The position numbers were made by a program, and so were the translations under genes. The notes below the pieces were generated by a model that worked only from the letters and a program-made list of their open reading frames with translations, ran no database searches and was not told the origin of the DNA. Shown piece after piece: positions 2,304 through 20,253 of a stretch of 64,000 nucleotides of DNA. Position 1 is the first letter of the stretch. Every line of letters begins with the position of its first letter. The DNA comes from a virus (taxonomy: Duplodnaviria > Caudoviricetes). The DNA lies in the IMG/VR virus record IMGVR_UViG_2540341244_000005, positions 7,399 through 71,398 of that record; one strand, given 5' to 3'.

Positions 2304-2533
2304 CAGCGGCTCCTTTGCGGCTTGGATGGGCGTTTGCGCACGATGAAGTGGTCTCCTGCCCGCACCCCGCAGATATACGGGATGCCGCACAGCAGTTTGC
2401 AGCCTGGGCAAACGACATTGTTGTTCATTTGCCGCGCCTGATAGGTTCCCGGGCAAAGGCAGTTCTTGTTCCCGATTTCGGTCATAAAGACCGGAGTGCC
2501 CTGGGGGAGCTTCTCTTGGTAGCTAAGATACAT
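2303..2533 (-). CDS. Hypothetical Cys-rich phage protein
   Basis: MYLSYQEKLP start with GGAGG RBS. Confidence 0.5.
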   Translation of the reverse strand: MYLSYQEKLPQGTPVFMTEIGNKNCLCPGTYQARQMNNNVVCPGCKLLCGIPYICGVRAGDHFIVRKRPSKPQRSR

Positions 2534-2544
2534 GCCCGCCTCCC

Positions 2545-2850
2545 TTAGAAATTCACTCGATAGACCGCCAATTCGGCCTCCAGTTCGGCCACCCTGGCCC
2601 GCAGCCGCGCCACCTCTTCCGGCTCGACGGCCATGGCCTCGGGCGTTGGCTCGGACGCAATTTCCTCGGCTGCCTCGGCAAACGCCGAGGCGACAAGCAC
2701 CTGCGGGCGAAACAGTTGATAGCCCGTTCCGTTCCAGAGCCGGACTTGACGTCCTTGTGGGGCGATCACGTACTTTGAGGCCACACGGCGCACCTTTCCA
2801 CGCGCGTTGACCTCGTAGGCCTCGAAGCCTGGGATGCCCCGCCATTCCAT
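2545..2850 (-). CDS. NUMOD4-like domain protein with C-terminal coiled coil
   Basis: MEWRGIPGFEAYEVNARGKVRR matches NUMOD4; no HNH motif seen. Confidence 0.6.
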   Translation of the reverse strand: MEWRGIPGFEAYEVNARGKVRRVASKYVIAPQGRQVRLWNGTGYQLFRPQVLVASAFAEAAEEIASEPTPEAMAVEPEEVARLRARVAELEAELAVYRVNF

Positions 2851-2855
2851 GCTGC

Positions 2856-3098
2856 TCACAGCAGGCACCTGTGAAGGCGGTCGGCGAAAGCCGCCACGCA
2901 GTCGAGTTTGGCAGCGACGTCCTGGGCAAAGCCAAAACCGGGGATGAGCATGGTGGCGTTGTCATACGCCAACGTGGCCTCGCCTTGGATGGACTCATGA
3001 AGCGCTGTCGCATCGCCAACAGCCAAAGGGATGGCCCCATCTGGGGTCGCCTCGCCGATCTCAATCATGCCGGTTGCCCAACAGTATGCTACGGCCAT
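2856..3098 (-). CDS. Conserved Mu-like early protein (family often annotated host-nuclease inhibitor)
   Basis: AYCWATGMIEIG...LIPG motif; AGGAG RBS. Confidence 0.55.
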   Translation of the reverse strand: MAVAYCWATGMIEIGEATPDGAIPLAVGDATALHESIQGEATLAYDNATMLIPGFGFAQDVAAKLDCVAAFADRLHRCLL

Positions 3099-3110
3099 GG
3101 TCTTCTCCTG

Positions 3111-3173
3111 GTGGCTGCTCATCAGGCCCGGGCCGCCACGCCCGGACGACCGCCCACATGGGGCGGTTTCGCA
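3111..3173 (-). ncRNA. Type II hammerhead ribozyme
   Basis: UGC-GAAA-CCGCCC(CAUGU)GGGCGG-UC^-GUCCGGGC(GUGGCG)GCCCGGGC-CUGAUGA-GCA: complete core and three stems; loop I GUGGC can pair with the 3' GCCAC. Confidence 0.9.
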
Positions 3174-3479
3174 TCAGGCGTTCGGATTCAACGCATCCTT
3201 CAGCGCCTTCCCCACATTGAGCTTGGCGCTCCGGCTGGCCTCGATATCAATGGTCGCACCGGTGCGGGGATTGCGGCCTTTGCGCGCCTTGCGTTCCACC
3301 AGTTCCAGCGTGCCCAGGCCGGGCAGCGTCACCTTGCCGCCCTCGGCCAGGATCGAGGCGGCCTCCGCGCCGAGTGCATCCAGCACATGGCTAATGGTGG
3401 TCTTCTCGTGTATGTGCTTGGTCTGCACGTCGCCGGCCAGCCGGTCCTTGATCCTGTCGATGAGTCCCGCTTTGCTCAT
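3174..3479 (-). CDS. HU/IHF-family DNA-binding protein
   Basis: MSKAGLI...VTLPGLGTLELVERKARKGRNPRTG...GKALKDALN. Confidence 0.92.
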   Translation of the reverse strand: MSKAGLIDRIKDRLAGDVQTKHIHEKTTISHVLDALGAEAASILAEGGKVTLPGLGTLELVERKARKGRNPRTGATIDIEASRSAKLNVGKALKDALNPNA

Positions 3480-3497
3480 GTTCCTTTTCCTCCACGG

Positions 3498-3794
3498 TTA
3501 CATGGTCATTCCGGCCTGGATTCTCCGAGCCTCGGTGACGTAGTTGGCGGTCATGGCCCCGGCCGAAGCCGCCCGGTTGATGAGGTCAGACAGCGCTTCG
3601 GCCTTCTTCTTCCAGCCTAACGCCTGGGCTTCGGCGCTTCGCAACACCCGCATGGGCACCACCCGATCCGTCGCAGCGTCGCAGGGCGACACGCTCCGGC
3701 TGGCGCAGTTGCCGCACAAGCTCTCGCCGCCGAGAGCCAGCGGCAAACCCACGTGGCCGCATTCCGTGCATTTGCAAGACTGCTTGCCGTCCAT
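3498..3794 (-). CDS. Hypothetical Zn-ribbon protein
   Basis: CTECG...CGNC. Confidence 0.5.
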   Translation of the reverse strand: MDGKQSCKCTECGHVGLPLALGGESLCGNCASRSVSPCDAATDRVVPMRVLRSAEAQALGWKKKAEALSDLINRAASAGAMTANYVTEARRIQAGMTM

Positions 3795-3813
3795 ACTGCC
3801 CCCGCTGGCCGGT

Positions 3814-4041
3814 CTACGGCCGATCCTGGTCCAGATGTTCCACCAGCCGGATACTGGCTGCGGCGATTTTTACCGCCTGCTGACGAGCCTTGTCGTAATG
3901 CCCATTGAGCATGGACCTGCAGACGTTCGCGCTGGCATTTGCGACAGCTCCCGCCAGCAGAAAAGCCATATCGTCTTCCGGGGGCATGGCCGGCAGCCGC
4001 TCCAGCTCCCGCACCACTTCGATGGGCAGCGCGTCCATCAC
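3814..4041 (-). CDS. Hypothetical phage protein
   Basis: ORF overlaps the upstream stop; operon continuity. Confidence 0.5.
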   Translation of the reverse strand: MMDALPIEVVRELERLPAMPPEDDMAFLLAGAVANASANVCRSMLNGHYDKARQQAVKIAAASIRLVEHLDQDRP

Positions 4042-4652
4042 AGCACCGCGATATCCAGGGCGATGGGCGCATAGCTGTCGTCATCCCGGCGCTCGTAGAC
4101 CCGCAGGAGCTTTTTCGAGCCAATCACCTGCAAGCTGTCCGCGATGGCCTCCATGGCCTCCCGCCAGCGTTTGTCCTGGATGTCGAGCTTGCGCAGGCCA
4201 AGGATTGCGCCGGTGTTGACGCGTCCTTCCGTGTCCACGGCGAAGGCCTGATTGATGATGGCCTTGATCTCTTCGGTGCTCCCCTTGGCCCATTCGGTCA
4301 GGCATTCGTCGACCAAGGACTTCGCGACCTGCAACCGTTCATCAAAGGACAGGTGGTCGCTGATCTGAAGCTGCACCTTGTATCGGCCATCGAAGCTCAT
4401 CAGGGTGATGTTGCCCTTGAGGCCGCCGCGTTTGGCCCCGTATTTCTCGGCCGACAGGTCGGCGAAGGCCTGAATGTCGCCCAGGGTGTTGGCGCGAAAG
4501 GTCCGCAACACCGCCTGCGCGTCCTTGGCAGCGCCCACGATGCCGCGCACCAGGTCATCGCGCAGCTTGTCCACCTCCTTGACCTTGCCGACCGGGATCA
4601 AGTGCTTTTTGGCGTCTTCCATGTACCCTTCGGGGATGCTCGTTTCGCTCAT
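4038..4652 (-). CDS. DUF3164 family protein
   Basis: IPEGYMEDAK...GGLKGNITLMSFDG...FDERLQVAKSLVDECL...ALDIA typical of DUF3164. Confidence 0.85.
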   Translation of the reverse strand: MSETSIPEGYMEDAKKHLIPVGKVKEVDKLRDDLVRGIVGAAKDAQAVLRTFRANTLGDIQAFADLSAEKYGAKRGGLKGNITLMSFDGRYKVQLQISDHLSFDERLQVAKSLVDECLTEWAKGSTEEIKAIINQAFAVDTEGRVNTGAILGLRKLDIQDKRWREAMEAIADSLQVIGSKKLLRVYERRDDDSYAPIALDIAVL

Positions 4653-5260
4653 GACTCCTGTTCCTCCTTCTCGAACCGGGCCAGGATGGCCCGGCAGTTT
4701 TCAATGATTTTGGCGCGGACGGCCGGTTGGTAGGGGTCGCGCTCCATAAAGGCCCGCACCAGCCGGCAGGCCGCATTGCGCTCGACCTCGAAGGGATCGG
4801 CGGCATCCTGGGGAGGGTACGGCGTGTTCACCGTGTCCTTGGCCCGTAGCGTGGCCCGAAAAAGGTACGTCGCCCCATCCCGGCCGTGGCGTTCGACAAA
4901 GCCCTCTTCAAGGAGCCATTGCCCGTATTTCCGAACATGGGTGTAGGAAACCCGAGACACCTGGGCGATGCCCGTCCAGGAGAAACCAGGCTTCGCCGAA
5001 CGGATGGCCCGCCAAGCCCGTTGGTAGAACTCCCCACTGCGAAGCCTGGCCTTGGGGTTGTAGGCGTACTTCCCGTCCTCAATGCGCGTCAGTTCCGCCC
5101 GCTTGATGAGGTCATTTATCCGGGAGCGCAGCCGGGCCTTGGCCGGCTCGTTGTCCAACCCCATTGCCTCGTAAAGCAGGGCGTTGGTGACCGGCTCCTT
5201 GCCGTTGATCGTCAGGCCCTGGATGACCAACCGCAGGCGGTCCATCTCCTCGGTTCTCAT
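4649..5260 (-). CDS. Winged-helix-like phage protein
   Basis: AWRAIR...IAQVSRVSYTHVRKYGQWLLEEGFV; directly downstream of MuB. Confidence 0.6.
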   Translation of the reverse strand: MRTEEMDRLRLVIQGLTINGKEPVTNALLYEAMGLDNEPAKARLRSRINDLIKRAELTRIEDGKYAYNPKARLRSGEFYQRAWRAIRSAKPGFSWTGIAQVSRVSYTHVRKYGQWLLEEGFVERHGRDGATYLFRATLRAKDTVNTPYPPQDAADPFEVERNAACRLVRAFMERDPYQPAVRAKIIENCRAILARFEKEEQES

Positions 5261-5976
5261 GCCCGCCTCCAGCTCTTTTGCTTCTGGATCGCCGCCACCA
5301 TGGCCGCGTCGGCCTTGTCGGTTTCGCGGGCCTTGGCCGCCTGTTCCAGCATCTGCACCATGTTGCGCACCAGCCGCATGTCGCCGTCCGAAGTGGCCCG
5401 GACCATGGCGCAGGCTTCGGGCGTCAAGTCGAGGCCGGCGGCTTCGAAGGCGAAGGCGGCGATGTCGCCTTCATCCACGGGGCCGAAGGCCACTTCCTGG
5501 GTCACGCGGGACCAGATGCGGCGGCGCTTGGACAACAGCCCGATAAGTTCCTCTTCCCCTATGAGGAGGATTGCCGCCCCGGTGGCCTCATGGATGTCGC
5601 GCAAGTCCTCGATCCGCCCGAAGGCCAGCCGGTCGGCTTCGTCCATGTAGATGGTGGCGGCCTGGCCCTGTTTGCGCCGTTTCTCCAGGACTTCGACAAT
5701 CCGCACTTTGCAGGCGTGGGCCGAACGCGGCGCTAGCGCACCCGTGACCTCAAAGCACAGCTTCCCGAGGAAGGCGGCCTGCGTCATGTCTTCCCATGCG
5801 GAAAGGAACACCCCGCCGCGCTCGGCCTGGCTGTTGCGAGCGGCAAACGTCTTGCCCCGGCCGGCCTGGCCCCAAGCCACGACAATGCCGGGCTGGCCTC
5901 GCTCGGTATCCTCGACAGTCAACACGGCCCGCTGAAAAGCGGCTACGTTGCCCGTCTCCACAAAAACCGATTTCAT
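5257..5976 (-). CDS. MuB-like AAA+ transposition ATPase
   Basis: Walker A GQAGRGKT, Walker B IYMDEAD, LRDIHE; follows the transposase. Confidence 0.92.
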   Translation of the reverse strand: MKSVFVETGNVAAFQRAVLTVEDTERGQPGIVVAWGQAGRGKTFAARNSQAERGGVFLSAWEDMTQAAFLGKLCFEVTGALAPRSAHACKVRIVEVLEKRRKQGQAATIYMDEADRLAFGRIEDLRDIHEATGAAILLIGEEELIGLLSKRRRIWSRVTQEVAFGPVDEGDIAAFAFEAAGLDLTPEACAMVRATSDGDMRLVRNMVQMLEQAAKARETDKADAAMVAAIQKQKSWRRA

Positions 5977-8084
5977 GCGTCTCCTCCCCCGTTGGCGGCC
6001 TTGCGACGGCGCTCGTAGACCGTGCGCAAGCGCGCGTAACGTCCAGCCGCGCAGGCCGCGTATTCCTCGGTTTGCTCATAGCGGGCCATCCATGCGGCGT
6101 CGGCCTCACGCAGGGCCAAGCCGTCACGAACGGCCAAATTGAAAAGGTATTCGTAGCGGTCGAGTTCATTGACGATGGTGGCCATCTGCGCCGGCGGCAC
6201 ATAGGCCGGGGCGGCTTCGATCTTGGCCCTGGCCGCGATCTTGGCGGCTTCGATGCTCTTGACGTTCGGGGCTTTCGGTTCCGGCAGAGCCGGCGTTTCG
6301 GCCTTGTCAGCCGACACCAGACGCATGCGAGTCTGTGTTTCCGGCAGCACCACGGAATTCAGGAAATCTCTGGCGTTGGCCGTGACCTGGTTTTCCAAGG
6401 CCTTCTTGTAGGCGATCTCGCTCGTCAGAACGGCCTGATCGTCAGCGGTCCCAAGGAGGCGGGCAGCCGGATGCACTTTCGGCACGGGCGTGGCCTCGCA
6501 GATCAGATTCTTGCCGGACTGGTCGTAGACGAGCACCGACCGCCGGTCCTGCTCGTCGAAGCGCACCAGCACGGGATGGCGCAGGCTATGCAAGAAGGGA
6601 TGGCGATAGGACTGCCCAAAAAGGCCCACGCCGTTGCGGTCGATGGTGCGGACCACCTTGGAGAGCATGCACAGCCGCAGCTTAAGCAGATCGCCTTCGC
6701 CAAGGCCGGGACCGGCCCCCGCAGCAAACGCCTCGGCCGGAGCTTTGCCGGCCAGGTGGCCCCGCTGGGGGCGTTCGGCATAGGCATCGAACCAACTGGC
6801 AATGGCGGTATGGGCTTCCTCAAGGGTCAGCGGCCGGCCGCCGGATGCCTCATAGACTTTGCGGTGGAGCTTCTCCCCGCGCATGAGGCGCGGTGGCTTG
6901 GATTCTATGGACGTGCCGACATATGACGGTATCCAGCGTTCAAGCTCGCCGAACGTCTTAAAAAAGCGTTCAATGGTCTTGGACTGACCGTGGTAGGGCC
7001 AAGCGAAAAGCGGGGCTATGCCGAGTTCCTGAAATACGCCGCCAAGGCCACTTTGCTTCAGGTCCACGCCGTTGAAAAACTTGCTCCGGAAGGCCCGCCC
7101 GTTGTCCAGATAGGCCACCTTCGGAAACATTCCGAGTCGCAGGCATGCCCGGCGCAGGGCCGAGGCGATGGCTTGCGTGTTTTCCGTGGGCAGGATTTCC
7201 CAGCCAAGCGGGTAGCTGGATGCCATGTCGAACCACAGCACCAGTTCCATGCGCGCCCCCTTGCCGGTCTCCGGGTCGAGAATCTCGAAATTGAGGGCAT
7301 GGCCGTCGGCCACCAGGATGTCGCCCACGCTGATTTTCGAATAATCGCGCTCGATATACGGGCAACAGTCGTCGTTCCAGGCCTTGGCTCCCTCGCGGGC
7401 GTAGACCCATTCCCCGTAATTGAGGGTCATCCACTTGCGCAGGTAGCGGTACAGCGTGATTTCGGCGCAATCCGGCAAGCCGGCGGGCTTAAATGCCTCG
7501 CGGGCCATGCGACAGACTTCGGAAAGACAATGCTTGTTGGGATGGCGGACCAGGGCGAGCAAAATTTGGGCGTGTCGTTCGGTTACAACCGGCTCCACGC
7601 GCACGCCGCCGCGTGTGTCGGCCAGGGCCAGGGCCGAGCCGGTGCGGCGCATGGCGGTCTTCCAGCGTTCCAGGGATTGGACGGACACCTTATCGCCAAG
7701 GATTTCCTTGATCTTGGGCCACACGCCGCCCCGGTAAGCGGCGACGAACTCCTTGCCGGCCTGTCCCTTGCGGGCCGCCTTGGCCAGGGCTTCGGTGTAG
7801 AGGCGCACCAGATCGGCTTTAGCCAGGGCCTTGCGGCGTTGATCCTCGGTCAGATTGGCATCGGCGGCCACGGCGGCGGGGAGATTGGCCCCCTCGTAAG
7901 CGGTAATGGCGTCCTGGATGTCCTCGGGCAAGGAGGCGGCGAGGTAGGCCTTTTCCCGCCAAGCTTTGCCCGAGCCGGCTTGTGCCGCGCAAGCCCACCC
8001 AGCTTTGCTTGCGCGGCTATTGACCGCCCGAGGTGTCACACCCAGGGCATAGGCCAATTCACTTGCTGTGTAAGCGTCCTTCAT
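5973..8084 (-). CDS. MuA-like DDE transposase
   Basis: N-terminal HTH (YTASELA); DDE motifs VADGH / YLDNG / KTIERFF; Mu-type C-terminal region. Confidence 0.95.
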   Translation of the reverse strand: MKDAYTASELAYALGVTPRAVNSRASKAGWACAAQAGSGKAWREKAYLAASLPEDIQDAITAYEGANLPAAVAADANLTEDQRRKALAKADLVRLYTEALAKAARKGQAGKEFVAAYRGGVWPKIKEILGDKVSVQSLERWKTAMRRTGSALALADTRGGVRVEPVVTERHAQILLALVRHPNKHCLSEVCRMAREAFKPAGLPDCAEITLYRYLRKWMTLNYGEWVYAREGAKAWNDDCCPYIERDYSKISVGDILVADGHALNFEILDPETGKGARMELVLWFDMASSYPLGWEILPTENTQAIASALRRACLRLGMFPKVAYLDNGRAFRSKFFNGVDLKQSGLGGVFQELGIAPLFAWPYHGQSKTIERFFKTFGELERWIPSYVGTSIESKPPRLMRGEKLHRKVYEASGGRPLTLEEAHTAIASWFDAYAERPQRGHLAGKAPAEAFAAGAGPGLGEGDLLKLRLCMLSKVVRTIDRNGVGLFGQSYRHPFLHSLRHPVLVRFDEQDRRSVLVYDQSGKNLICEATPVPKVHPAARLLGTADDQAVLTSEIAYKKALENQVTANARDFLNSVVLPETQTRMRLVSADKAETPALPEPKAPNVKSIEAAKIAARAKIEAAPAYVPPAQMATIVNELDRYEYLFNLAVRDGLALREADAAWMARYEQTEEYAACAAGRYARLRTVYERRRKAANGGGDA

Positions 8085-8128
8085 TGTGCCGCCATTTGTC
8101 CGCTTGAAAGATTTCCGCGTGTTACTTT

Positions 8129-8190
8129 CGGCTGCTCATCAGGCCGGACGCACCACCGTCCGACGACCGCCCCGCAGGGCGGTTTCGCAA
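8129..8190 (-). ncRNA. Type II hammerhead ribozyme upstream of the transposase
   Basis: UUGC-GAAA-CCGCCC(UGCG)GGGCGG-UC^-GUCGGACG(GUGGUG)CGUCCGGC-CUGAUGA-GCAG; stem I covaries with the copy at 3111-3173. Confidence 0.9.
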
Positions 8191-8193
8191 TGG

Positions 8194-8625
8194 TCAGACC
8201 GGCAGGGGGAGGGGTTCCCATTCAGGCCACCACGGAAGGAAGGAAAGACCTCCAAGGTGCCGAGCAAGTGCACGAATCTTCCGATAGCCATCCTTCCACG
8301 CCTGCCGATTAAAGCGGCTAGGACGGATAAACATGCAAGTCCGTTCCCAAAAGCGGATCGGGAATTTTGTGCTCTTGAAATATGTATAGGGAGCAGCCAG
8401 AGAGAATTCGAAGCCTTGTGCATCAAACGACAGATCGATGCCGGATTTAAAAACACGTCGTATGGCGACGAGCATCACGCTGTCGGGGACTCTGGCTTTC
8501 CGAATGACAGCATTGCAGGCGTGTTCCCCTGATATGGGGCCGTCTGCTCGCACAATGCCGTCCACAAAAGCAGCCAACGCCCTCTTGTACTGCGCTTCGC
8601 GTTTCTTGATCGTGCGTTTGTTCAT
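8194..8625 (-). CDS. Hypothetical basic protein of lower GC
   Basis: 143-aa ORF with AAGGA RBS; lower GC than flanks. Confidence 0.6.
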   Translation of the reverse strand: MNKRTIKKREAQYKRALAAFVDGIVRADGPISGEHACNAVIRKARVPDSVMLVAIRRVFKSGIDLSFDAQGFEFSLAAPYTYFKSTKFPIRFWERTCMFIRPSRFNRQAWKDGYRKIRALARHLGGLSFLPWWPEWEPLPLPV

Positions 8626-8629
8626 GATG

Positions 8630-8824
8630 CTATTCCTTTCCCATCAGGATATGCGTCATGCGTGAGGAAAACGATGAGCCGTTGTCGGTCATCATCACCT
8701 CGACGCCGCACATGGCCAAAAGCGCCCCTTTCACGGCCTTTTTTGACAGGCCGTTTTGCCTCAAAACCTGGGCAACCTGCCGCATTTCTTCCGCCTTCCC
8801 CGTCAACCGTTTCCGCTTGCTCAT
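8630..8824 (-). CDS. Small hypothetical protein
   Basis: Strong AGGAGG RBS; MSKRKRL. Confidence 0.6.
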   Translation of the reverse strand: MSKRKRLTGKAEEMRQVAQVLRQNGLSKKAVKGALLAMCGVEVMMTDNGSSFSSRMTHILMGKE

Positions 8825-8850
8825 CGCCCAACCTCCTTTCCTATTTTGAT

Positions 8851-8958
8851 ATTTCCCGCGCCCCCACAGGAGCTGGCGATCTGGTCGCTCTACCTCTCGT
8901 GCCGGGTGGTCTGGCGGTCTGGCCGCTCGGCCCCCGAACGCCGCGAAGGCGCGGAAAT
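8851..8958 (-). other. Structured intergenic RNA with twin CCAGA-loop hairpins
   Basis: 18-nt repeats GAGCGRCCAGAYCGCCAG at 8873-8890 and 8911-8928 with a compensatory pair change, enclosed by ATTTCCGCGCC/GGCGCGGGAAAT. Confidence 0.55.
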
Positions 8959-8967
8959 TTCTGGCGG

Positions 8968-9186
8968 CTAGGCCGCTTGCTTGCCCTTCATGTCCGCCGG
9001 CAGAGCCAGCAGCTTCGCCGGACAGCCGGCATCCAGCAGCGCTTGCAGCGCCCTGCGGTTGTTGCGCTTGCCGTGGATGGTGTCGGACACCAGCGAATGC
9101 GAAACCTTGGCTTTGCGCGCGATTTCAATCACTTTGATCTTCTTTTCGGCCATCCAGCCTTTGATTTTGTTGCCTGCGCGTTTCAT
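8968..9186 (-). CDS. Ner/Cro-like HTH regulator
   Basis: IKGWMAEKKIKVIEIARKAKVSHSLVSDTIHG; divergent from cI. Confidence 0.8.
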   Translation of the reverse strand: MKRAGNKIKGWMAEKKIKVIEIARKAKVSHSLVSDTIHGKRNNRRALQALLDAGCPAKLLALPADMKGKQAA

Positions 9187-9617
9187 AATTCTGCCTCGAT
9201 TTTCCGCTTTCGCTCACGGAGCGCCTTGATCTCCCGCTCGGTGTGGGCCAGCTCCAACAGCTTCGCGTCGTCGCCGTCGATGATTCGCCACCCTAGGCCG
9301 TGCGACCGAGCTAGGATGTCGAGAGGCTCGACTGCACCAAACACATGGCAAAAGAGGTTCAGTGCCCGAACGCTCGGCACGTAGTCCGCTTCCTTGGGGT
9401 TGAGCCACTTTTCAAAGGTGGCCAGCCCAAGCTCCTTGGCGTTGCCGGCCGCTAGCCGCACGCCGAACCGCTTGGCCGCTTCATTCAACCGGTCAACGGC
9501 CTCCGCCCGCGACAGCCCGGCCGCTTGGATGATCCGATCCATGGACACCGCTATGTCCGCGTCCGGATTAAGCTCGACCAGTTCGAGCAGGCTGAGGCGT
9601 CGCGAGTGGGCAGCCAA
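9183..9617 (-). CDS. Phage regulatory protein (CII-like)
   Basis: TFEKWLNP...LNLFCHVFG...PLDILA pattern; first gene of the early operon; TTG start uncertain. Confidence 0.55.
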   Translation of the reverse strand: MAAHSRRLSLLELVELNPDADIAVSMDRIIQAAGLSRAEAVDRLNEAAKRFGVRLAAGNAKELGLATFEKWLNPKEADYVPSVRALNLFCHVFGAVEPLDILARSHGLGWRIIDGDDAKLLELAHTEREIKALRERKRKIEAEL

Positions 9618-9724
9618 TTCCGATTGCTCCGATCCAAAGTTTTCGGGCCGCCGGACATTGAGGATTATTGCCGGCCCTGGTAGCTACGTTCGTAACGGTG
9701 ACATTCGTCACCCCGTGAGAAGAG

Positions 9725-9795
9725 GATTAGAGCTAAAAGCGTTGACAGTCAACGCTAAAAAGCGCTTCCGAGCATGTTCGCTCATGCTAAAAAGA
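9725..9795. promoter_or_regulatory. Divergent lysis/lysogeny promoter-operator region
   Basis: Perfect palindrome AGCGTTGAC-A-GTCAACGCT (9738-9756) with TTGACA/TTGACT on opposite strands; second palindrome AGCATG-N6-CATGCT (9771-9788); three GCTAAAA repeats. Confidence 0.65.
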
Positions 9796-9824
9796 CAAAA
9801 TTCTGTAACTATCTGTATTAAAAC

Positions 9825-10448
9825 ATGATTCAAGACACAGGCCAGCCCCAAGGCATTTCCCAGCAAATTTCCCAGCATAGCCCAGATGCTGAGAAACACT
9901 TCCGCGCGAAATTCAGCCGAGTGTTGACCGCGTGTGGTGCTCGGAGTGACTCAGAATTGGCCAGAATTTTGGACATTAAGCCGTCGTCAGTTGGTGCGGC
10001 AAAGCGCAGGATGCAGCTCCCCCCCGGGTGGGTAGAGCAAATAGCACAAAGTTTTGAGATAAATGCGGATTGGCTTTTCTTCGGCACCGGCCCGATGCGC
10101 CGGGGAGAAGCCACAAAAGAGGCCCCAGCGTCGGCTCCCGCGCCTGCGGAAGCGTTTTTGACCGCCCCGCAGGAAGAGTTCCGGATGTCGGATATGCTGA
10201 CCAAGACAGCCGAAGTGCTGGAGTCCGACACAATCTACCGGACAGCATTAGCCAGCAATATAAACGCATTCCATCAAGCAGTGAGAAGCGAGCGGACGCT
10301 CGCGCGCATCGAAGAGAGGATGGCTGAATGGGAGGCGAAGGCGGACGCAATGGTGAAGCGCATGGAAGAGTTAGAGAGAGAGAACAGAGAATTGAAACAG
10401 CGGCTGGAGCCAACCGGCAGGGACAAGGCGGTGGGTGCGGAGGGGTAA
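9825..10448 (+). CDS. CI-type repressor (HTH plus coiled coil, no S24 peptidase)
   Basis: SDSELARILDIKPSSV...INADWLFFGTGPM is Phage_CI_repr-like; divergent from the early operon. Confidence 0.85.
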   Translation: MIQDTGQPQGISQQISQHSPDAEKHFRAKFSRVLTACGARSDSELARILDIKPSSVGAAKRRMQLPPGWVEQIAQSFEINADWLFFGTGPMRRGEATKEAPASAPAPAEAFLTAPQEEFRMSDMLTKTAEVLESDTIYRTALASNINAFHQAVRSERTLARIEERMAEWEAKADAMVKRMEELERENRELKQRLEPTGRDKAVGAEG

Positions 10449-10551
10449 ACTGATTATTGTATCAAAATGGCTTGCGGGCTCTTTTTTTATGTCCAGTGTA
10501 TTAGACGATTTGATATTGTGTTCATGTTTCGAGTAGATGCTCGCCCGCGTA

Positions 10552-10725
10552 TCTCATTTTGCCTGATATTTTTGCCCCCATTCAGGCCGTTTTTCTCATC
10601 TTGCCCCCCAGGCCTCACGCGCGCTTGGCCAAGGCCCCAAAGCCACGCCAGTCCTACGTTTAGCCTACGTTCGTCCTATCCGATCCAGCACCCACGCCAT
10701 TTCTCATTTTGCCTGACTCCCCATA
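10552..10725. repeat. Transposable-phage end with putative transposase-binding repeats
   Basis: TCTCATTTTGCCTGA at 10552-10566 and 10702-10716, TCTCATCTTGCCCCC at 10594-10608; spaced pattern like Mu L1/L2/L3; just beyond cI. Confidence 0.7.
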
Positions 10726-10753
10726 ACTGATTTGCGCTTTCGTTGGCACTTGG

Positions 10754-11476
10754 TCACGCGGCCTCACGTTTGGGGTACGGCTGGATCGGAAGGCGTAGGC
10801 GTTTGCGCCAGGGCTGCTTCAGAAATAGCACGTAGCGGAACTGGCGGAACTGATGCCGGGTGGCCCGGTGAAGGTTCTCCCGGAGGTGCTGGGCGCGGCC
10901 GCCTTGGTGGCGATGCGCTGTCAGCATCAGGACGTGATACCAGTCATCATCCAGGTGCCAGAAGGTGGCAAGGTGGCTGCCGCAGAACTGAAAGTTGCTG
11001 GCCTGGTAGACCACCCCCAACCCACCGCAGCGTTCGTCGGCAAAGCTCTGGACCCAGGCCACGGTCGGGCAGGCGCGGCGGATGTATTTCACCGCATAGC
11101 TTATTGCCTGGCTTTCCGTATTGCGCGGGCAGGCGTCGTCAAGCCACATCCTGTTGAGCTCCAGATATTCGCCGACCTTGGTCCCTTCCACCACCCTGCC
11201 GGCCAAGTGCGGGTTCAGGGCGTAGCCGAATTGGAGCACACCCCGAAAGTGCCCCTGATGGTAAACGCCCAGGTGCACGTAGCTGTTATTGACCACTCGC
11301 TTGGAATAATGCTTGGCCACGATGGTTTCCCGTGCCCTGGCCGCCGGGATGGCGGCCAGGTAGAGGTCGTGCTTGCCGAACCCTTGCACCCCGGTTTCGC
11401 CTATCAGGTAGCCCGGTTGGTCACCGGTCGGCGGTTCATACGGACTCGGTTTCGGCGGATGATACGGTCTGGCCAT
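10754..11476 (-). CDS. mom: Mom-family DNA adenine modification protein
   Basis: HYSKRVVNN...GVLQFG...LELNRMWL...RNTES...SFADERCG..GVVYQASNF; downstream of and overlapping com. Confidence 0.9.
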   Translation of the reverse strand: MARPYHPPKPSPYEPPTGDQPGYLIGETGVQGFGKHDLYLAAIPAARARETIVAKHYSKRVVNNSYVHLGVYHQGHFRGVLQFGYALNPHLAGRVVEGTKVGEYLELNRMWLDDACPRNTESQAISYAVKYIRRACPTVAWVQSFADERCGGLGVVYQASNFQFCGSHLATFWHLDDDWYHVLMLTAHRHQGGRAQHLRENLHRATRHQFRQFRYVLFLKQPWRKRLRLPIQPYPKREAA

Positions 11477-11627
11477 GGGTGCGCTCCCTGGGGGAGGCTC
11501 CATGGCCTTCTGTGATGGGGCTCGCGGCCCTCACGTGGTTGATGGTATGGCAGCGGGGACATTTGATTTCGATGGTCCCGGTGCCTTTGGCCAGTAAACG
11601 TCCGCATTGTCCGCAACGTATCTCCAT
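11436..11627 (-). CDS. com: Com zinc-finger translational activator
   Basis: IRCGQCGRLLA...IEIKCPRCHTIN; upstream of mom. Confidence 0.9.
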   Translation of the reverse strand: MEIRCGQCGRLLAKGTGTIEIKCPRCHTINHVRAASPITEGHGASPRERTHGQTVSSAETESV

Positions 11628-11682
11628 GATTACCTTTACAGGTTAGGCCGGAAGCGATAGCCCTCTAACGCCCGCGCGGGCT

Positions 11683-11756
11683 GGAGCGCGGCTTCGGCCG
11701 TGGCGCGATGTTGACGCATCGCGTCGGTGGGGCGGTTGCCGCCGCCCTGCCGCTCC
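11683..11756 (+). ncRNA. Putative tRNA-sized cloverleaf RNA divergent from com (copy 1)
   Basis: GGAGCG/CGCTCC closing stem, CGGC-TTCG-GCCG, CGCGATG/CATCGCG, GGGCGG-TTGCCG-CCGCCC; covaries with 62943-63020. Confidence 0.65.
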
Positions 11757-11793
11757 TCTTTGTAATTCCTCGCTCTCCGTTCTCCTCTATCGA

Positions 11794-12564
11794 TCAAATA
11801 GCTGAGCCGGCTTCATTGGCGGGGGCCGGCGGCCAGGCCACCGCGTCCACGGCGGCCGTCACAGCGGTTGGCGTCCCGGCCGCCTCGACGGCTCGCTTAC
11901 CGGCCAGACGCGCCAGCTCCACCGCGTCGCCATACGTCCACCAAGCATCCGCCATGGCCACGATGGTGCGGGCCACTGCCTCCGGCGTGTCGGCCGTGAT
12001 GCCGACCTCGCCGTAGACGGCCGGAAAGGATGCCTCAAAGGCGGCCAGCGCCGCAGGCTCCAAAGGAACCTGCCCCGATGCAATCGCGGCCAAGTAGGCC
12101 CGGGCCTGGCCCTCCTTGCGCTGGTAGCGGGCCATTTGGGCCGATCCGGGCGTAATCACCTGATTGCATCGAAGTTCCGCCATGTAATCGATCCGGTCAC
12201 AGGCTTCGGCACGGAGCCGATCCAGGTCGACCGCCGGCACAGGCCGCCAATCCCCGAATGTCGGGCACCCGGCCGGCAGGGGCACAACCGTGACGCCGGT
12301 CAGGGTTGCGGCCATGATGCGAGACAGAATGGAGTCCTCGGCCCGAAGAATGGCGTACTCGCCATCGTAAGAGACCGGTTCGGCCGTCACGTTGCCTTCG
12401 GCGTCGATCACGGCCGGGGTCTGGATGACGCGGCCGACGTATTGCAGCGCATGGTCATGGCTGGCCGTGATGAGTTCTCCGCTCGAAGTGGCGAGGTCAA
12501 AAGGCAGAAGCGCGGCGACGAAGGTGTCAAGGGACGCGCATTTCAGGCAGATATCGTATTGCAT
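11794..12564 (-). CDS. Tail-fibre-associated protein with DUF4376-like C-terminal domain
   Basis: GEVGITADTPEAVA...AW..VE.ARL motif shared with 14810-15526 and 62435-62938. Confidence 0.65.
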   Translation of the reverse strand: MQYDICLKCASLDTFVAALLPFDLATSSGELITASHDHALQYVGRVIQTPAVIDAEGNVTAEPVSYDGEYAILRAEDSILSRIMAATLTGVTVVPLPAGCPTFGDWRPVPAVDLDRLRAEACDRIDYMAELRCNQVITPGSAQMARYQRKEGQARAYLAAIASGQVPLEPAALAAFEASFPAVYGEVGITADTPEAVARTIVAMADAWWTYGDAVELARLAGKRAVEAAGTPTAVTAAVDAVAWPPAPANEAGSAI

Positions 12565-12574
12565 TCCACACCTC

Positions 12575-14806
12575 CTACGCCGACATCGACAGCGCCAGTG
12601 CGTCGGCCAGCGCTCGGTTGAAGAGCACCTGGCTTTTTATTGTTCCGCACCACTGATTCGCGCCGGTCGAATCGCTCCCCAGGCGCAAGGTGGTCAGGCC
12701 GGCCGGCAAAGAACCGACGAGGCTACTTCTCGAAACTGATCCGTCCCGAGCCGCATAAAATGCCCCAGCCGCGAAGGTGAAGGCGACCTTGAACGTCGTG
12801 GAATCGCCTACCGTTTGAAGCGTCAAATCCACCTGATTGACGCCGCCGGAATCAACCACGCACCGAACCTCCCCGGTGGCGTTGCGGATGATCCGCACGC
12901 GATTATTGGGCGTTCCGTCGTCCAACTGGACCAGCACCTGCACCGCTGTCCCGGTGGGTGCTCCCAGCGCGGTGATCGCCTGCACGACCAAAGTCCCTTC
13001 ATTCCCGGTCCACAACGCCTCTCCGGCCGGTCCGGTCAGGCTCGCTAGGGGCACGGTGCAGATGTCTGCCGCCCGGGTCATGGCCGCGCCGGCCTGGATC
13101 GTCCAGTCGGAGGCGGTGGCGCTGCCACCGCCTGTCGCCGTGATGCTCACGACCAAAGTCATACCGATATGGCTGGTCACCGTACCGGTCATGTAGTTGG
13201 CCGGATTGCTGGTTTGCCAGGCGCGGACGGCCGCGCCAGCCGGGATGGCGCGACCGGGAACGGTGGAGTCATACCCGACCGTAAAAGTTTTTGCCCCATT
13301 TCCTAGAGTGTTACTGGTCGCGCTGGTCGTCTCCCAGCCTGTGGGGAGATAGGACGGAGGGAATGTTCCTGAGCAGCTTCCAAATGACTGTATGAATATG
13401 CCGGATACACCGTTCCCCGTATACGTCGGGTTTCCTGACGTGTCTGTGATCGATATTTGACACGTGGCAGAGGTGACTCCTGCGCCGAACAGACAACTCA
13501 CCCACAACAGAAACCGTCCGTCCCGTAATTCTACGACCCCGTAAAATGGGTTACTCGCGGCTCCACCAAACGTCGTGATAGAGTAGGCTTTTGTTGTGAA
13601 GTTGAAGTTAAGCAAATACCCGCTCGTTCCTCCATAAAGAGATATGGACATGCTTGTCCTCTCCCCGGCCGAAACGACAGCATATGCACATTGCTGCGTG
13701 TCAGCAATAATTGTGCGGTTTTGCAGAACAGCATGACTGTTAGAAGCCGTCGTGTCCTCGATTAGCTTGTCACCAGTGAGGCCGTCAGGGTATGTTATTG
13801 CATTAGGCACGACGGTGCATCGTGCTTTTGTGCATCTAGAGTTATCGAGTTGCTCCGAATACAGAAAGTCGTGAGTGGACGTTTTTTCGATGGACAGCCC
13901 TTTGCAGACCCCCGTCAGGGGGTCACACTCAAACACGGGCGCATTGGCGGCTGCGTACCGCAAATAGCCAGACCGCCCCCGATATGACGTGATGGATGCC
14001 CGTGAGAACACCACCCGGGGATGCAGCACCGACGTCAAGGCCGGAGCCCACGCGAAAATGGGGGCCGGCACGCCAGCCACGGAGCCGCCGGCAATTAGCG
14101 CGGCGATAGCCTCCAGGTAAGCCACCGACACGGCCACGTTTCCCGGTACGGACGCGGCAGAAGCCGCCGCCGCGATGGCTGACGTGGACGCCGCGCCGGC
14201 AGCGGCCAGGGCCTCATTGGCCTTGGCGGTGGCCGTCGTGGCCGCCGCCGTCGCGGTGCCGGCCGCCGTAGTGGCTTCGGCCGCACGGGTGGCGGCCATT
14301 GCCGCTTCGGCCCCAACGCTGGCGGCGGAAACAGCGGCAGCCGCCTGGCTGGCGGCCGCTTGGGAAGCCGCCTCGGCGGCCTCTTCGGCCGATCCGTCGG
14401 CTTCGGAGGCCGCGAACGTCGCTTCGGCTTGCAGCTGGGCAACTTCCTCGCGCGCGGCCAACACCTCTTCCACAGCTGCTTGCACGGCCATGGAAGTGGT
14501 CACGCGCGGCCCCAGGACGATGTCGCACGGTGTGTTGGGGATGGCGACAAAACGCACGACGCTGCCGCCCTGGGGCATGGTGGCGGTCAGATTGTAGACG
14601 CTGCCTTCACTGCCCAACTCACTCGGGAACAAATCCAAGACAACGACACCGTATCGGTCCGTTTGCCCTTGCGTCGAGGCCGGGACGTCCAGCCCGAGGT
14701 AGCGCTCCGGGACGGTCAGGGTGGCCCGCACCTGGGCTCCGATCCAGGGATTCCCCTGGGCGTCCTGACACAGGATGCGGACGGGTACGGTGGGGATGGC
14801 GCTCAT
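12575..14806 (-). CDS. Large fibre/spike-like protein (Ala-rich stalk, beta-rich receptor-binding region)
   Basis: Fibre-type N-terminus, Ala-rich coiled coil, FSRAS...AAANAP..E.DPLTG..KGLSIE motif, LamG-like C-terminus; lower-GC interior. Confidence 0.65.
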   Translation of the reverse strand: MSAIPTVPVRILCQDAQGNPWIGAQVRATLTVPERYLGLDVPASTQGQTDRYGVVVLDLFPSELGSEGSVYNLTATMPQGGSVVRFVAIPNTPCDIVLGPRVTTSMAVQAAVEEVLAAREEVAQLQAEATFAASEADGSAEEAAEAASQAAASQAAAAVSAASVGAEAAMAATRAAEATTAAGTATAAATTATAKANEALAAAGAASTSAIAAAASAASVPGNVAVSVAYLEAIAALIAGGSVAGVPAPIFAWAPALTSVLHPRVVFSRASITSYRGRSGYLRYAAANAPVFECDPLTGVCKGLSIEKTSTHDFLYSEQLDNSRCTKARCTVVPNAITYPDGLTGDKLIEDTTASNSHAVLQNRTIIADTQQCAYAVVSAGERTSMSISLYGGTSGYLLNFNFTTKAYSITTFGGAASNPFYGVVELRDGRFLLWVSCLFGAGVTSATCQISITDTSGNPTYTGNGVSGIFIQSFGSCSGTFPPSYLPTGWETTSATSNTLGNGAKTFTVGYDSTVPGRAIPAGAAVRAWQTSNPANYMTGTVTSHIGMTLVVSITATGGGSATASDWTIQAGAAMTRAADICTVPLASLTGPAGEALWTGNEGTLVVQAITALGAPTGTAVQVLVQLDDGTPNNRVRIIRNATGEVRCVVDSGGVNQVDLTLQTVGDSTTFKVAFTFAAGAFYAARDGSVSRSSLVGSLPAGLTTLRLGSDSTGANQWCGTIKSQVLFNRALADALALSMSA

Positions 14807-17924: not shown

Positions 17925-18281
17925 CTAGGCCACCTGCACCGGATGCTGGAAGGTGGCCACGCGCCCCAGGGCGTCCACCACAGTGATAAGCAGCAAGCAG
18001 CGGCCGTCATGCGGCTGCTCGGAAGCCACGTCGATGGAGCGCGCCCGGCCGTCGTCAAGAAGCGGTTGCAGCGCGGCGGCGGCATACTGCCGCGCCAACA
18101 CGCCGATGCGCGGCAGGTCCTTGGAGCGGGCCAGTTCATGCAGACGCGAACCAATGGAGGTATCCGCCCACCACGAACCTAACGGCGTGGCGAGACGGAT
18201 GTAGACGGCGTTGCCCAGGTGGTTTATTCGGGAAGGCAGATATTCGCCGGTATATGGATCAATGCCCTTGTCGATGCCCAT
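17925..18281 (-). CDS. Mu gp46-like baseplate protein
   Basis: GSWWAD..IGSRLH.L.R.K....A.QYA..ALQPL.DDG.A. Confidence 0.9.
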   Translation of the reverse strand: MGIDKGIDPYTGEYLPSRINHLGNAVYIRLATPLGSWWADTSIGSRLHELARSKDLPRIGVLARQYAAAALQPLLDDGRARSIDVASEQPHDGRCLLLITVVDALGRVATFQHPVQVA

Positions 18282-18333
18282 GCCCGCCACCTTAGTGGCG
18301 GTGCAGGGTGGTGGGATAGGTGAAGGGGTTCAG
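18282..18333 (-). promoter_or_regulatory. Putative activator-dependent late promoter (copy 1)
   Basis: CTGAACCCCTTCACCTATC (18315-18333) identical to 31207-31225 with the same spacing to ATG; -10-like TAAGGT. Confidence 0.7.
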
Positions 18334-18403
18334 CATGTTCGTGGAGAGGCTAGGAGTACTACTGTCAAATGATCAGTAATTATCAAATATATGATGGGAT
18401 AGC

Positions 18404-19087
18404 ATGATTAACTTTTCCAAGAACTCGGGAATATTTCAAAATGCAATATTACTAGCTTTTGCAGCTATATCGGGGTGCTTGTCTCTGTATACGATGTATT
18501 CCAACGTCTCAAGCGGGTTTGGATATTTTGCTATTTTTTTATTATGCTTAATATTTATCAATATAGATAAGTTTGAAAATTTTAAGGCATCTGCTTCCGG
18601 AGTTGAAGCAAGACTTAAAAATACAATAAAAGAAGCAGAGATAAGCATAAATGGATTGAATAATTTGGCCATAGCATTAGCAAGCGGATATGTTACTATG
18701 CTTGCCCGCAGTAAGTCATTGCTAATGTTAAATCTCAAGGAAAGCAATGCTTACAAAGATCAGATCGAAGAATCACTAACAGAGTTAAATTTAGGCGACA
18801 GATTGAGAGATTGTTTCGATATTTGGGATAAACATATGTTGACTTTGTATGTGAATCAAATATTTACAATTACAGCAGAAGAAGAGAAGCTTTTGCCTAA
18901 AAAAGATATTCTTGAATGCGTAGAAGTGAAAGCCGGTGGCCCTCATATTTTGCAAATACTACCAAAAAAGCTTGAAATTTTGAAAAAATATAATTTGTTG
19001 ACAGAGAGGCGAAAAGATCTTCTTGAGGACTATGACTACTATGCGAAGAACTTTAAGCATCGACGGCCTGATGTTTTTTTTAAATAA
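18404..19087 (+). CDS. AT-rich moron, two N-terminal TM helices, unknown function
   Basis: Opposite strand to tail genes; very low GC; hydrophobic N-terminus. Confidence 0.8.
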   Translation: MINFSKNSGIFQNAILLAFAAISGCLSLYTMYSNVSSGFGYFAIFLLCLIFINIDKFENFKASASGVEARLKNTIKEAEISINGLNNLAIALASGYVTMLARSKSLLMLNLKESNAYKDQIEESLTELNLGDRLRDCFDIWDKHMLTLYVNQIFTITAEEEKLLPKKDILECVEVKAGGPHILQILPKKLEILKKYNLLTERRKDLLEDYDYYAKNFKHRRPDVFFK

Positions 19088-19122
19088 GCAAATGTGTTGC
19101 ATTTAGATCAACGAGATAGTTA

Positions 19123-19335
19123 TTAAATTGTCGATTCATCTACTTTAGGTCGATCCGTCGGCCCCCCCCCATCATTCTCGGGATGCACATGCCCAACCAA
19201 CGAAACCCCACCACTTACATGATCCACGTCCGCCGTGGACGTATCCGTGATATGCAAATTCTCGCGCCACACGACTTCGTAGTCGCCGCCGAACCCCAGC
19301 CGAGCCGATAACCCCATCCAATCGCTGGCCACTGC
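19123..19335 (-). pseudogene. Diverged duplicate of the 3' end of the gp45 spike gene
   Basis: GD..VWR.NLHIT.TSTADVDHVSGGVSLV.HVHPENDGGGPTD nearly identical to the C-terminus of 20265-20915. Confidence 0.85.
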
Positions 19336-19575
19336 GATAAGCGGGCCTGTTCATCGAATTATAACCAAATGAAGAACCTGTGCGACACAAACCCAATAAA
19401 ATTGCGAGAAGCATATAGACGGCGTTGCGCAGGCGGTTTATGAGTAAGGAGAAATATTCAAAAGCAAATCGAATATTATTTTTGTTACCCTTTATGCCTG
19501 TCTCCTTAGTGGCAGTGCTGATGGCTAACACAAATGGAGCAGCCAGGGAAAATCGTCTCTATAAAAGGACATCCC

Positions 19576-20253
19576 ATGAGCGACAGCCAATCATTAGCAT
19601 CCATTTCAACGATAGGCGGAATACTAAGCGGCGGCATTGGTACTTTTTTTGGTTTTTTTCTAAAATCATTATGGGATAGACACTGGAAGAAACACGATGA
19701 AGCAGAAACGTTAAAAAGAAACAAAAGACTAGACTTTCTTGAAAAGCAACTTTTTGAGTTTTATGTTCCTATTTACATGCGCCTTCAAAAGGATAACGTT
19801 GTTTGGCTCAAGGTTTACGACAGGCCAAAAAATGACAACATGAAACGACAAGTTGCGATTTCGATTGAAAGCAATTTTATTCTTCCAAATCACTATGAAA
19901 TAATTAAAATTATAGAATCAAAGTATCATCTTGCGCGAGCAGACGATGATCTTTCACAACAGATTTTTGCATACATAAAACACATGGCAGTATTCAAAGC
20001 ACTGCGTGAATGCGGAGTGTTGGATGTTGATCCAATTGAACTTGGTGAGCCATTTCCAAAAAAATTATTTTCTCTCATCGAAAGAAAAGTATCTGATCTT
20101 CAAGAGGAATATGACACGCTATTAAACATGGAGAGCCGCTCAAAAAGCGATTATTATTTTTCATTGAAAAATGAATGCTTGAACTTCAAACAAAACATTG
20201 CGCGCTATTGCAATAGGGATACGTTACACAAAATAATCGGGAAATATCTGTAA
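19576..20253 (+). CDS. AT-rich moron, N-terminal TM helix plus helical domain
   Basis: AAGGA RBS before ATG 19576; low GC; opposite strand. Confidence 0.8.
   Translation: MSDSQSLASISTIGGILSGGIGTFFGFFLKSLWDRHWKKHDEAETLKRNKRLDFLEKQLFEFYVPIYMRLQKDNVVWLKVYDRPKNDNMKRQVAISIESNFILPNHYEIIKIIESKYHLARADDDLSQQIFAYIKHMAVFKALRECGVLDVDPIELGEPFPKKLFSLIERKVSDLQEEYDTLLNMESRSKSDYYFSLKNECLNFKQNIARYCNRDTLHKIIGKYL

Follow-up and report, generated by a model that had tools for sequence, protein, structure and literature searches.

What does a self-cleaving ribozyme do 80 nt ahead of the transposase gene in a Mu-like prophage? The question arises in a provirus record of 71,398 bases, of which a stretch of 64,000 nt (here called the window) was analysed. 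An initial annotation of this DNA had proposed that a hammerhead ribozyme before the gene for the MuA-type transposase, together with another copy at 3111, cuts the transposition genes out of the early transcript as a defined fragment of about 5 kb, and that the transposition machinery is controlled separately in this way.

Hammerhead ribozymes of prophages have been described before. According to the available part of Perreault et al. 2011 (PMC3088659), prophage hammerheads occur in twos or threes and flank genes or short gene blocks, the clustered ribozymes cleave both in vitro and in E. coli, and it was proposed in 2011 that pairs of them cut long phage transcripts into operon-length mRNAs. 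These ribozymes resemble the one studied here, copy A, in their pseudoknot between loop I and the 3' tail, in their clustered, gene-flanking habit and in the transcript cutting proposed for them; the tested examples differ in that they flank other genes, such as ardA in an Agrobacterium prophage, and the words "transposase" and "Mu-like" are absent from the accessible portion of the text. In Desulfovibrio vulgaris, cyPhyRNA-seq has shown three type II hammerheads to be active, with cleavage both in vivo and in vitro (PMC8782182, in the sections available). They are like copy A in that they come from the bacterial family of the prophage's relatives, are of the same type and have a minimal 3' fragment of 39 nt, and they have similar neighbours, namely phage-like, DNA-binding-protein and HTH genes; that work, in the same sections, addressed activity and neither function nor position relative to a transposase, and two of its copies are separated by about 300 nt, as against 5 kb here. 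The strongest associations of ribozymes (hammerhead and twister) with genes are those with genes of Mu-like phages, as stated after Roth et al. 2014 and Weinberg et al. 2015 in the part of PMC10085705 at hand; this is exactly the situation here, with the difference that type II hammerheads are the only ribozyme class that Rfam scans found in these loci. A 2019 review (PMC6765202) regards most bacterial and phage hammerheads as functional orphans and mentions transcript processing as a suggestion.

The association of hammerheads with prophages is thus already in print, and the copy in the window is one more example, not a new kind of element. Our literature search found no description of a hammerhead before a Mu transposase; published lists of ribozyme-associated genes may already name MuA, DUF3164, HU or Gam. 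Here, we describe the structure, covariation and placement of the ribozyme, and present a positional survey that adds some detail to the known association.

The prophage and its early operon

Judged by its gene content, the element is a Mu-like transposable prophage of a sulfate-reducing bacterium. A gene for a MuA-type DDE transposase of 703 aa (5973-8084, minus strand; PF09299 Mu-transpos_C, 7.2e-12; phrog_310, 6.3e-99) is followed by one for a MuB-type ATPase, or DNA transposition protein (5257-5976, minus; PF13401 AAA_22, 2.1e-15; phrog_296, 1.6e-39), both downstream of a divergent CI-type repressor gene (9825-10448, plus strand; PF07022 Phage_CI_repr, 1.4e-05). The leftward operon continues on the minus strand with a conserved early protein of 203 aa and no assigned function (4649-5260; phrog_32597, 1.4e-56), a DUF3164 protein (4038-4652; PF11363, 4e-81; phrog_846, 7.8e-85), an HU/IHF-type DNA-binding protein (3174-3479; PF00216, 3.1e-22; phrog_379) and a Gam-like host nuclease inhibitor (2856-3098; phrog_1518, 4.5e-17). 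GemA (PF06252, 9.6e-07) and Mom (PF25680, 8.8e-76), the latter beyond the left end of the element, are further Mu-type markers. No second MuA was found in the whole record. The closest genomic relatives of the transposase are in assemblies of Solidesulfovibrio and other Desulfovibrionaceae. The host is a member of the Desulfovibrionaceae, and the nearest relatives are in Solidesulfovibrio genomes. Among isolated phages (tblastn against 50,697 phage records, of which 253 matched), the best MuA identity was 24%, to transposable phages of Mannheimia and Pseudomonas, and there is no close cultured relative among them.

The first two leftward early genes, a 144-aa ORF and a 72-aa ORF in a Ner-like position with a weak HTH match (8968-9617, minus; HTH_26, 0.0021, below the Pfam cut-off), are kept upstream of MuA in relatives by synteny. 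A 69-aa ORF sits between the Ner-position gene and an ORF of 143 aa (8194-8625, minus), which is the last one before the ribozyme. The 143-aa ORF belongs to no Pfam or PHROG family and is an accessory gene: tblastn found no counterpart in the 45 related viral loci L003-L047, including L003, whose MuA is 98% identical. Its GC3, 0.58, is below the 0.70-0.85 of the named early genes, and its ATG follows an SD-like GGAAAGGA; the SD-like sequence before MuA is only weak. The region presumed to hold the early promoter is 9618-9824; a sigma-70 scan of 2500-11000 did not find this promoter, returning one promoter-like site on the wrong strand. Terminator-like sites in 2500-11000 numbered 6, compared with 9.8 in shuffled sequence, and a weak terminator-like hairpin inside the 143-aa ORF (8470-8456) carries little weight since such hits are fewer than in shuffles.

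Homology of relatives to the element starts exactly at 10725, its presumed left end; the other end lies outside the window. The Mom-family gene (10754-11503, minus) lies 28 bp past 10725, and 10754-12620 shows a 95% match to the far end of L003. At its left end this prophage thus apparently borders directly on the right end of a Mu-like element, yet the record holds one MuA only. Elsewhere in the window, GC content falls sharply to 0.43 at 18001-20000, the remainder ranging from 0.55 to 0.72.

Copy A is a type II hammerhead ribozyme

Copy A (8126-8190, minus strand) was identified by the Rfam model RF02276, by our own hammerhead model (R1), by its sequence and by covariation. In an Rfam scan (cmscan) of the whole window, Hammerhead_II matched 8190-8126 (-) with 64.6 bits (E 4e-11), 27 bits over the gathering cut-off of 37 bits, and R1 scored the same copy at 85.2 bits. 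The 64 kb contain exactly two Rfam matches above gathering score, both of them Hammerhead_II on the minus strand and both covering positions 1-66 of the 66 of the model; a scan of the complete record gave the same two Hammerhead_II matches only.

Read 5' to 3' on the minus strand, copy A comprises UUGC, GAA, stem III, C8165, stem I, CUGAUGA, GCA and the tail GCCG. The core segments CUGAUGA (8142-8136) and GAA (8186-8184) match the consensus at every core position. All elements of the conserved core as given in the methods of PMC3088659, in its available part, are present: C3, U4, G5, A6, N7, G8 and A9; G12, A13 and A14; the pair A15.1-U16.1, here A8183 with U8166; and H17. Stem III has 7 bp (8183-8166; ACCGCCC / GGGCGGU) and the loop UGCG, and stem I has 8 bp (8164-8143; GUCGGACG / CGUCCGGC) and the loop GUGGUG. 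These two helices are closed by hairpin loops and stem II is open, which is the type II topology; stem II consists of 3 bp between 8189-8187 (UGC) and 8135-8133 (GCA), with the pairs U-A, G-C and C-G. The core-adjacent pairs 10.1-11.1 and 1.1-2.1, both G-C, are standard. On this evidence copy A is truly a hammerhead of type II, well formed if ordinary.

The pseudoknot is the weakest part of the fold. The tail GCCG (8132-8129) can pair with UGGU of loop I (8155-8152) through U.G, G-C, G-C and U.G, which makes the at least four pairs asked of such a helix. This is weaker than the consensus UGGC:GCCA and, with two of its four pairs G.U, among the weakest of the 27 copies aligned below; a U at column 58, the fourth pseudoknot position, occurs in only 2 of the 27, one of which is copy A. 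Shortening the pseudoknot from six pairs to four lowered the rate about 20-fold (PMC3088659, available part). Because its pseudoknot is weak and because of this effect on rate, cleavage by copy A may be slow or partial, and may be slower than that of copy B, the other ribozyme of the window, whose pseudoknot has five Watson-Crick pairs. The minimum-free-energy fold of a 176-nt context lacks stem I, but as it is no better than the folds of shuffled sequences (z -0.22) this carries little weight.

In the Rfam alignment C17 is C8165, and the predicted scissile bond lies 3' of it (8164-8165, minus strand). From this cut to the MuA start codon at 8084 the distance is 80 nt, and from the end of the ribozyme 41 nt. 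Upstream, the stop codon of the 143-aa ORF (8196-8194) lies 3 nt before copy A. The initial annotation was therefore right in placing a second hammerhead 80 nt before the MuA start and a few nucleotides after a stop codon, with a cut between 8165 and 8164. Cleavage by a hammerhead leaves a 2',3'-cyclic phosphate on the upstream product and a 5'-OH on the downstream one, as is established and also stated in the available sections of PMC8782182. For copy A, the predicted upstream product has the stem III hairpin at its 3' end, and the downstream product starts at G8164, with which the stem I hairpin begins; the minimal 3' fragment is 39 nt (8164-8126).

We also considered whether the tail of the ribozyme occludes the ribosome site of MuA. 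In folds of 8164-8055 and 8230-8055, GCCG (8132-8129) pairs with CGGC just before the ATG, but these folds are no better than those of shuffled sequences (z 0.01 and -0.22, respectively), and the idea was rejected.

A second ribozyme and covariation

Copy B (3109-3174, minus strand) matches RF02276 with 77.2 bits (E 2e-14) and R1 with 91.0 bits. Its predicted cut lies between 3148 and 3147, its pseudoknot has 5 bp, all Watson-Crick, and the HU stop codon overlaps its first base. The claim that the two ribozymes share a core and differ by compensatory changes in stem I and by their loop III is borne out: both partners of four stem I pairs differ between copies A and B (G-C/C-G, A-U/G-C, C-G/G-C and G-C/C-G), and loop III is UGCG in copy A versus CAUGU in copy B. 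The early operon has both ribozymes on its coding strand. Between them, the predicted RNA, 8164-3148, is 5,017 nt long, and the gene block MuA-MuB-DUF3164-HU lies between the two as had been said, with phrog_32597 and two small ORFs also inside.

The longest ORF for the Gam-like protein starts at an ATG (3122) that coincides with the AUG of copy B's CUGAUGA core (window 3098-3125, minus); an in-frame ATG at 3098, preceded by a GGAG directly after copy B, is the probable true start. An ORF of L008, starting at 2579, likewise begins inside a ribozyme. With a gene start inside the core, automatic gene calls may overlap a ribozyme and hide it.

Covariation was assessed in an alignment of 27 hammerhead copies from the window and related loci, with the pairs of the pseudoknot between loop I and the tail included. 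Standard pairs fill 96.6% of the cells, and 16 of the 22 pairs show changes on both sides; all 8 pairs of stem I and 6 of the 7 of stem III covary. In 500 shuffles, not one of the five measures attained its observed value, and shifting the 3' partners by 1-3 columns lowered pairing to 25-46%. The pseudoknot helix is 95.4% paired over the 27 copies, as UGGC:GCCA in most of them.

Some copies in relatives carry core substitutions: U4 to C (L010, 4318-4386, and L011, 8516-8584; copy after HU) and A9 to U (L018, 6376-6442), in addition to a degenerate core in L007_B (L007, 10535-10602). The core-substituted copies (L010, L011, L018 and L007) still score 53-65 bits, and may be inactive or variant ribozymes. 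Selection is not uniform across copies, since some relatives carry such substitutions.

Proposed role of copy A

The fold, the covariation and the position of copy A lead us to regard it as probably an active hammerhead of the leftward early polycistronic transcript, one that cuts after C8165 and acts as a generic punctuation mark, or insulator, at the junctions between modules. The ribozyme would fold as the RNA is made, stems I and III forming hairpins and the 3-bp stem II being held by the pseudoknot between loop I and the 3' tail, and would cut itself after C8165 co-transcriptionally. The cut would part the leader genes (the 144-aa ORF, the Ner-position HTH gene, the 69-aa ORF and the accessory 143-aa ORF) from an mRNA that begins with MuA, and copy B would cut again after HU, at 3148/3147. 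Given the type II architecture, the upstream RNA would end in a GC-rich hairpin with a cyclic phosphate and the downstream RNA would start with a hairpin bearing a 5'-OH. In bacterial mRNA decay, ends of these two kinds should slow end-dependent degradation. They could thereby uncouple the decay and the translation context of neighbouring segments, and each downstream gene would receive a defined leader whatever accessory genes sit upstream.

Engineered insulators offer a parallel, in which a self-cleaving hammerhead directly upstream of the SD sequence removes variable upstream RNA and leaves a defined, hairpin-capped leader. Such devices are synthetic, whereas for the natural elements we infer an insulator role, and copy A lies 41 nt from the MuA start.

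Placement of the ribozymes in related prophages

Relatives were sampled in two ways. A survey starting from MuA covered 45 viral loci and 29 genome loci; close relatives were defined by a MuA at least 74% identical, 14 loci having enough upstream sequence (L010 and L053 were left out), and remote relatives by a MuA less than 60% identical, many of them on short contigs, for which absence is no proof. A survey starting from the ribozyme covered 121 sampled genomes of the host family, of which 40 match and 39 are over the cut-off.

A hammerhead is found downstream of the transposition genes in 13 of the 14 close relatives, the exception being L003, in which homology ends inside HU. Upstream of MuA one is found in 9 (L003, L006, L007, L008, L009, L011, L049, L050 and L076) and is absent in 5 (L004, L005, L048, L051 and L052), the Ner-position gene abutting MuA in L004 and L005. 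Around the upstream ribozyme, the sequences of L007 and L011 are 99.8% identical. No hidden weak copy upstream of MuA was found with R1, at E up to 1, in relatives without one; two further R1 hits, of 20.6 bits inside the MuA region of L051 and of 16.4 bits in L032, were disregarded. Rfam gathering scans of L003-L058 and L076 returned no ribozyme class other than Hammerhead_II; L059-L075 were searched by R1 only.

Among the remote relatives 14 of 36 viral and 11 of 22 genome loci carry a hammerhead (25 of 58), in every case downstream of MuA, and none of the 58 found through MuA has an upstream copy. The best 30 loci of the ribozyme-first survey include 20 in which DUF3164, HU or the homologue of p98 lies upstream in the same orientation, 4 others with different Mu-type early genes nearby, and 6 with nothing recognisable. 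One of the genome loci, L107 (G087), repeats the arrangement of L008 and, with an identical flank, is probably the same prophage. The canonical hammerhead site is thus after DUF3164/HU, and the position before the MuA module recurs as a minority site. In related prophages the downstream copy is nearly always in place, and a bracket around the transposition genes is seen again in 9 of the 14 close relatives and even in the distant G059; the upstream copy is missing from the other 5 close relatives and from all 25 remote loci with a hammerhead.

These positions bear on the proposal with which the locus came to attention, namely that the pair is a dedicated device that excises MuA-to-HU as one 5-kb mRNA and doses the transposase, MuB and HU apart from the regulators and the later early genes. 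A bracket around MuA-MuB-...-DUF3164/HU recurs in the window, L006, L007/L011, L008, L009, L049, L050 and L076, and also in G059, whose MuA is 35% identical and which reads Ner-position gene, hammerhead, 449-nt gap, MuA, MuB, DUF3164, two hammerheads; the gene that comes last ahead of the downstream copy is usually HU or DUF3164, as in the 20 of the best 30 loci above, and the weak SD-like sequence of MuA is compatible with tight control of dosage. Against this stand the 5 close relatives and the 25 remote hammerhead loci that have no upstream copy, and also the spacing of those copies that do occur. Directly before MuA, with gaps of 24-41 nt, the ribozyme is found only in the window, L003 and L006; in the six other loci with an upstream copy 427-840 nt of GC 0.46-0.53, holding small unrelated ORFs, lie between ribozyme and MuA. 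Since small ORFs intervene in 6 of 9, what the ribozyme marks is a variable junction, not the start of the transposase gene itself. The bracket also varies in content, HU or DUF3164 being missing in some loci, third copies stand before other genes (L006, L010, L011, L050 and G059), and the identities of hammerhead-flanked prophage genes were not constant in the available text of PMC3088659 either. We consider a dedicated device unlikely and, the bracket being facultative and variable in content, rank punctuation or insulation above it; both readings could hold together.

A more specific form of the insulator reading is tentative and less likely than not. The hammerheads would be portable punctuation marks of Mu-like early operons, MuA-to-HU an autonomous, insulated mRNA of 5.0 kb, and the pair itself, which turns up in lineages with a MuA as little as 35% identical, the object of selection, the weak pseudoknot of the upstream copy tuning the fraction of transcripts cut. 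If this is true, accessory genes placed by recombination on either side leave the stability and translation of MuA-to-HU unaffected. The prophage family offers a natural experiment, in which the DUF3164/HU site is nearly always filled, the site before MuA is filled or empty among close relatives, and accessory genes come and go; a comparison of such relatives could show whether the ribozymes insulate the transposition genes or dose them.

It is improbable that copy A is instead a decaying or very slow ribozyme without a present role, kept by descent from an active ancestor. Two G.U among its four pseudoknot pairs, the loss of the upstream copy in 5 of the 14 close relatives and the occurrence of core-mutated copies would fit such a history, but all core nucleotides and all three core-adjacent pairs of copy A are intact, its score lies 27 bits over the cut-off, and the ribozyme is retained, helices paired, in L003, whose flanking region is 97.8% identical.

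Ribozymes at mosaic junctions

Homology between the window and L003 (97.8% identity) starts at 8206, 16 nt before copy A, and homology with L006 starts at 8189. Between the DUF3164 gene and the GemA-like gene of L004 the only match is the 67-nt ribozyme, and breakpoints at ribozyme edges are also seen in the comparison with L008. The segment from the Ner-position gene to copy A is hypervariable (window 8194-8836 versus L003 5256-5743). The ribozymes are conserved islands at mosaic breakpoints, with flanks that vary. Copies at different positions are 82-89% identical over 62-75 nt, all lie on the coding strand, most begin 0-6 nt after a stop codon, and many have an SD sequence and a start codon within about 13 nt downstream.

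That the conserved 66-nt sequence matters mainly as DNA, as a homology block for the swapping of modules with RNA cleavage incidental, is the least probable reading, for while the coincidence of breakpoints with ribozyme edges in L003, L004, L006 and L008, the different accessory genes on either side in different relatives and the likeness of copies at different positions would suit it, helix-preserving compensatory changes at 16 of 22 pairs, an invariant catalytic core and a constant coding-strand orientation are unexpected of a pure recombination site, and the divergence of stem I within one phage lowers DNA homology.

Closely spaced hammerheads and other RNA elements

Genomes of the family also contain pairs of hammerheads about 70 to 800 nt apart (G116:C72:7236-7432; G092:C1:2805967-2806349; G161:C90:6814-7621; G161:C19:5228-6095), whose cleavage would set free very short RNAs or just one small gene. 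In three remote Mu-like loci a C4 antisense RNA (RF01695) lies 1.2-3.5 kb downstream of a hammerhead (L024, 9814-10033; L033, 10925-11011; L045, 8465-8549), and in L024 the a1/b1 target family of C4 and isrK also match; C4 is an immunity RNA of the P1/P7 type, here in a Mu-like early region. A Mu-like prophage of the Desulfovibrionaceae, L057, carries a CRISPR array of 34 repeats (RF01317; 2228-4237) about 2.8 kb upstream of MuA.
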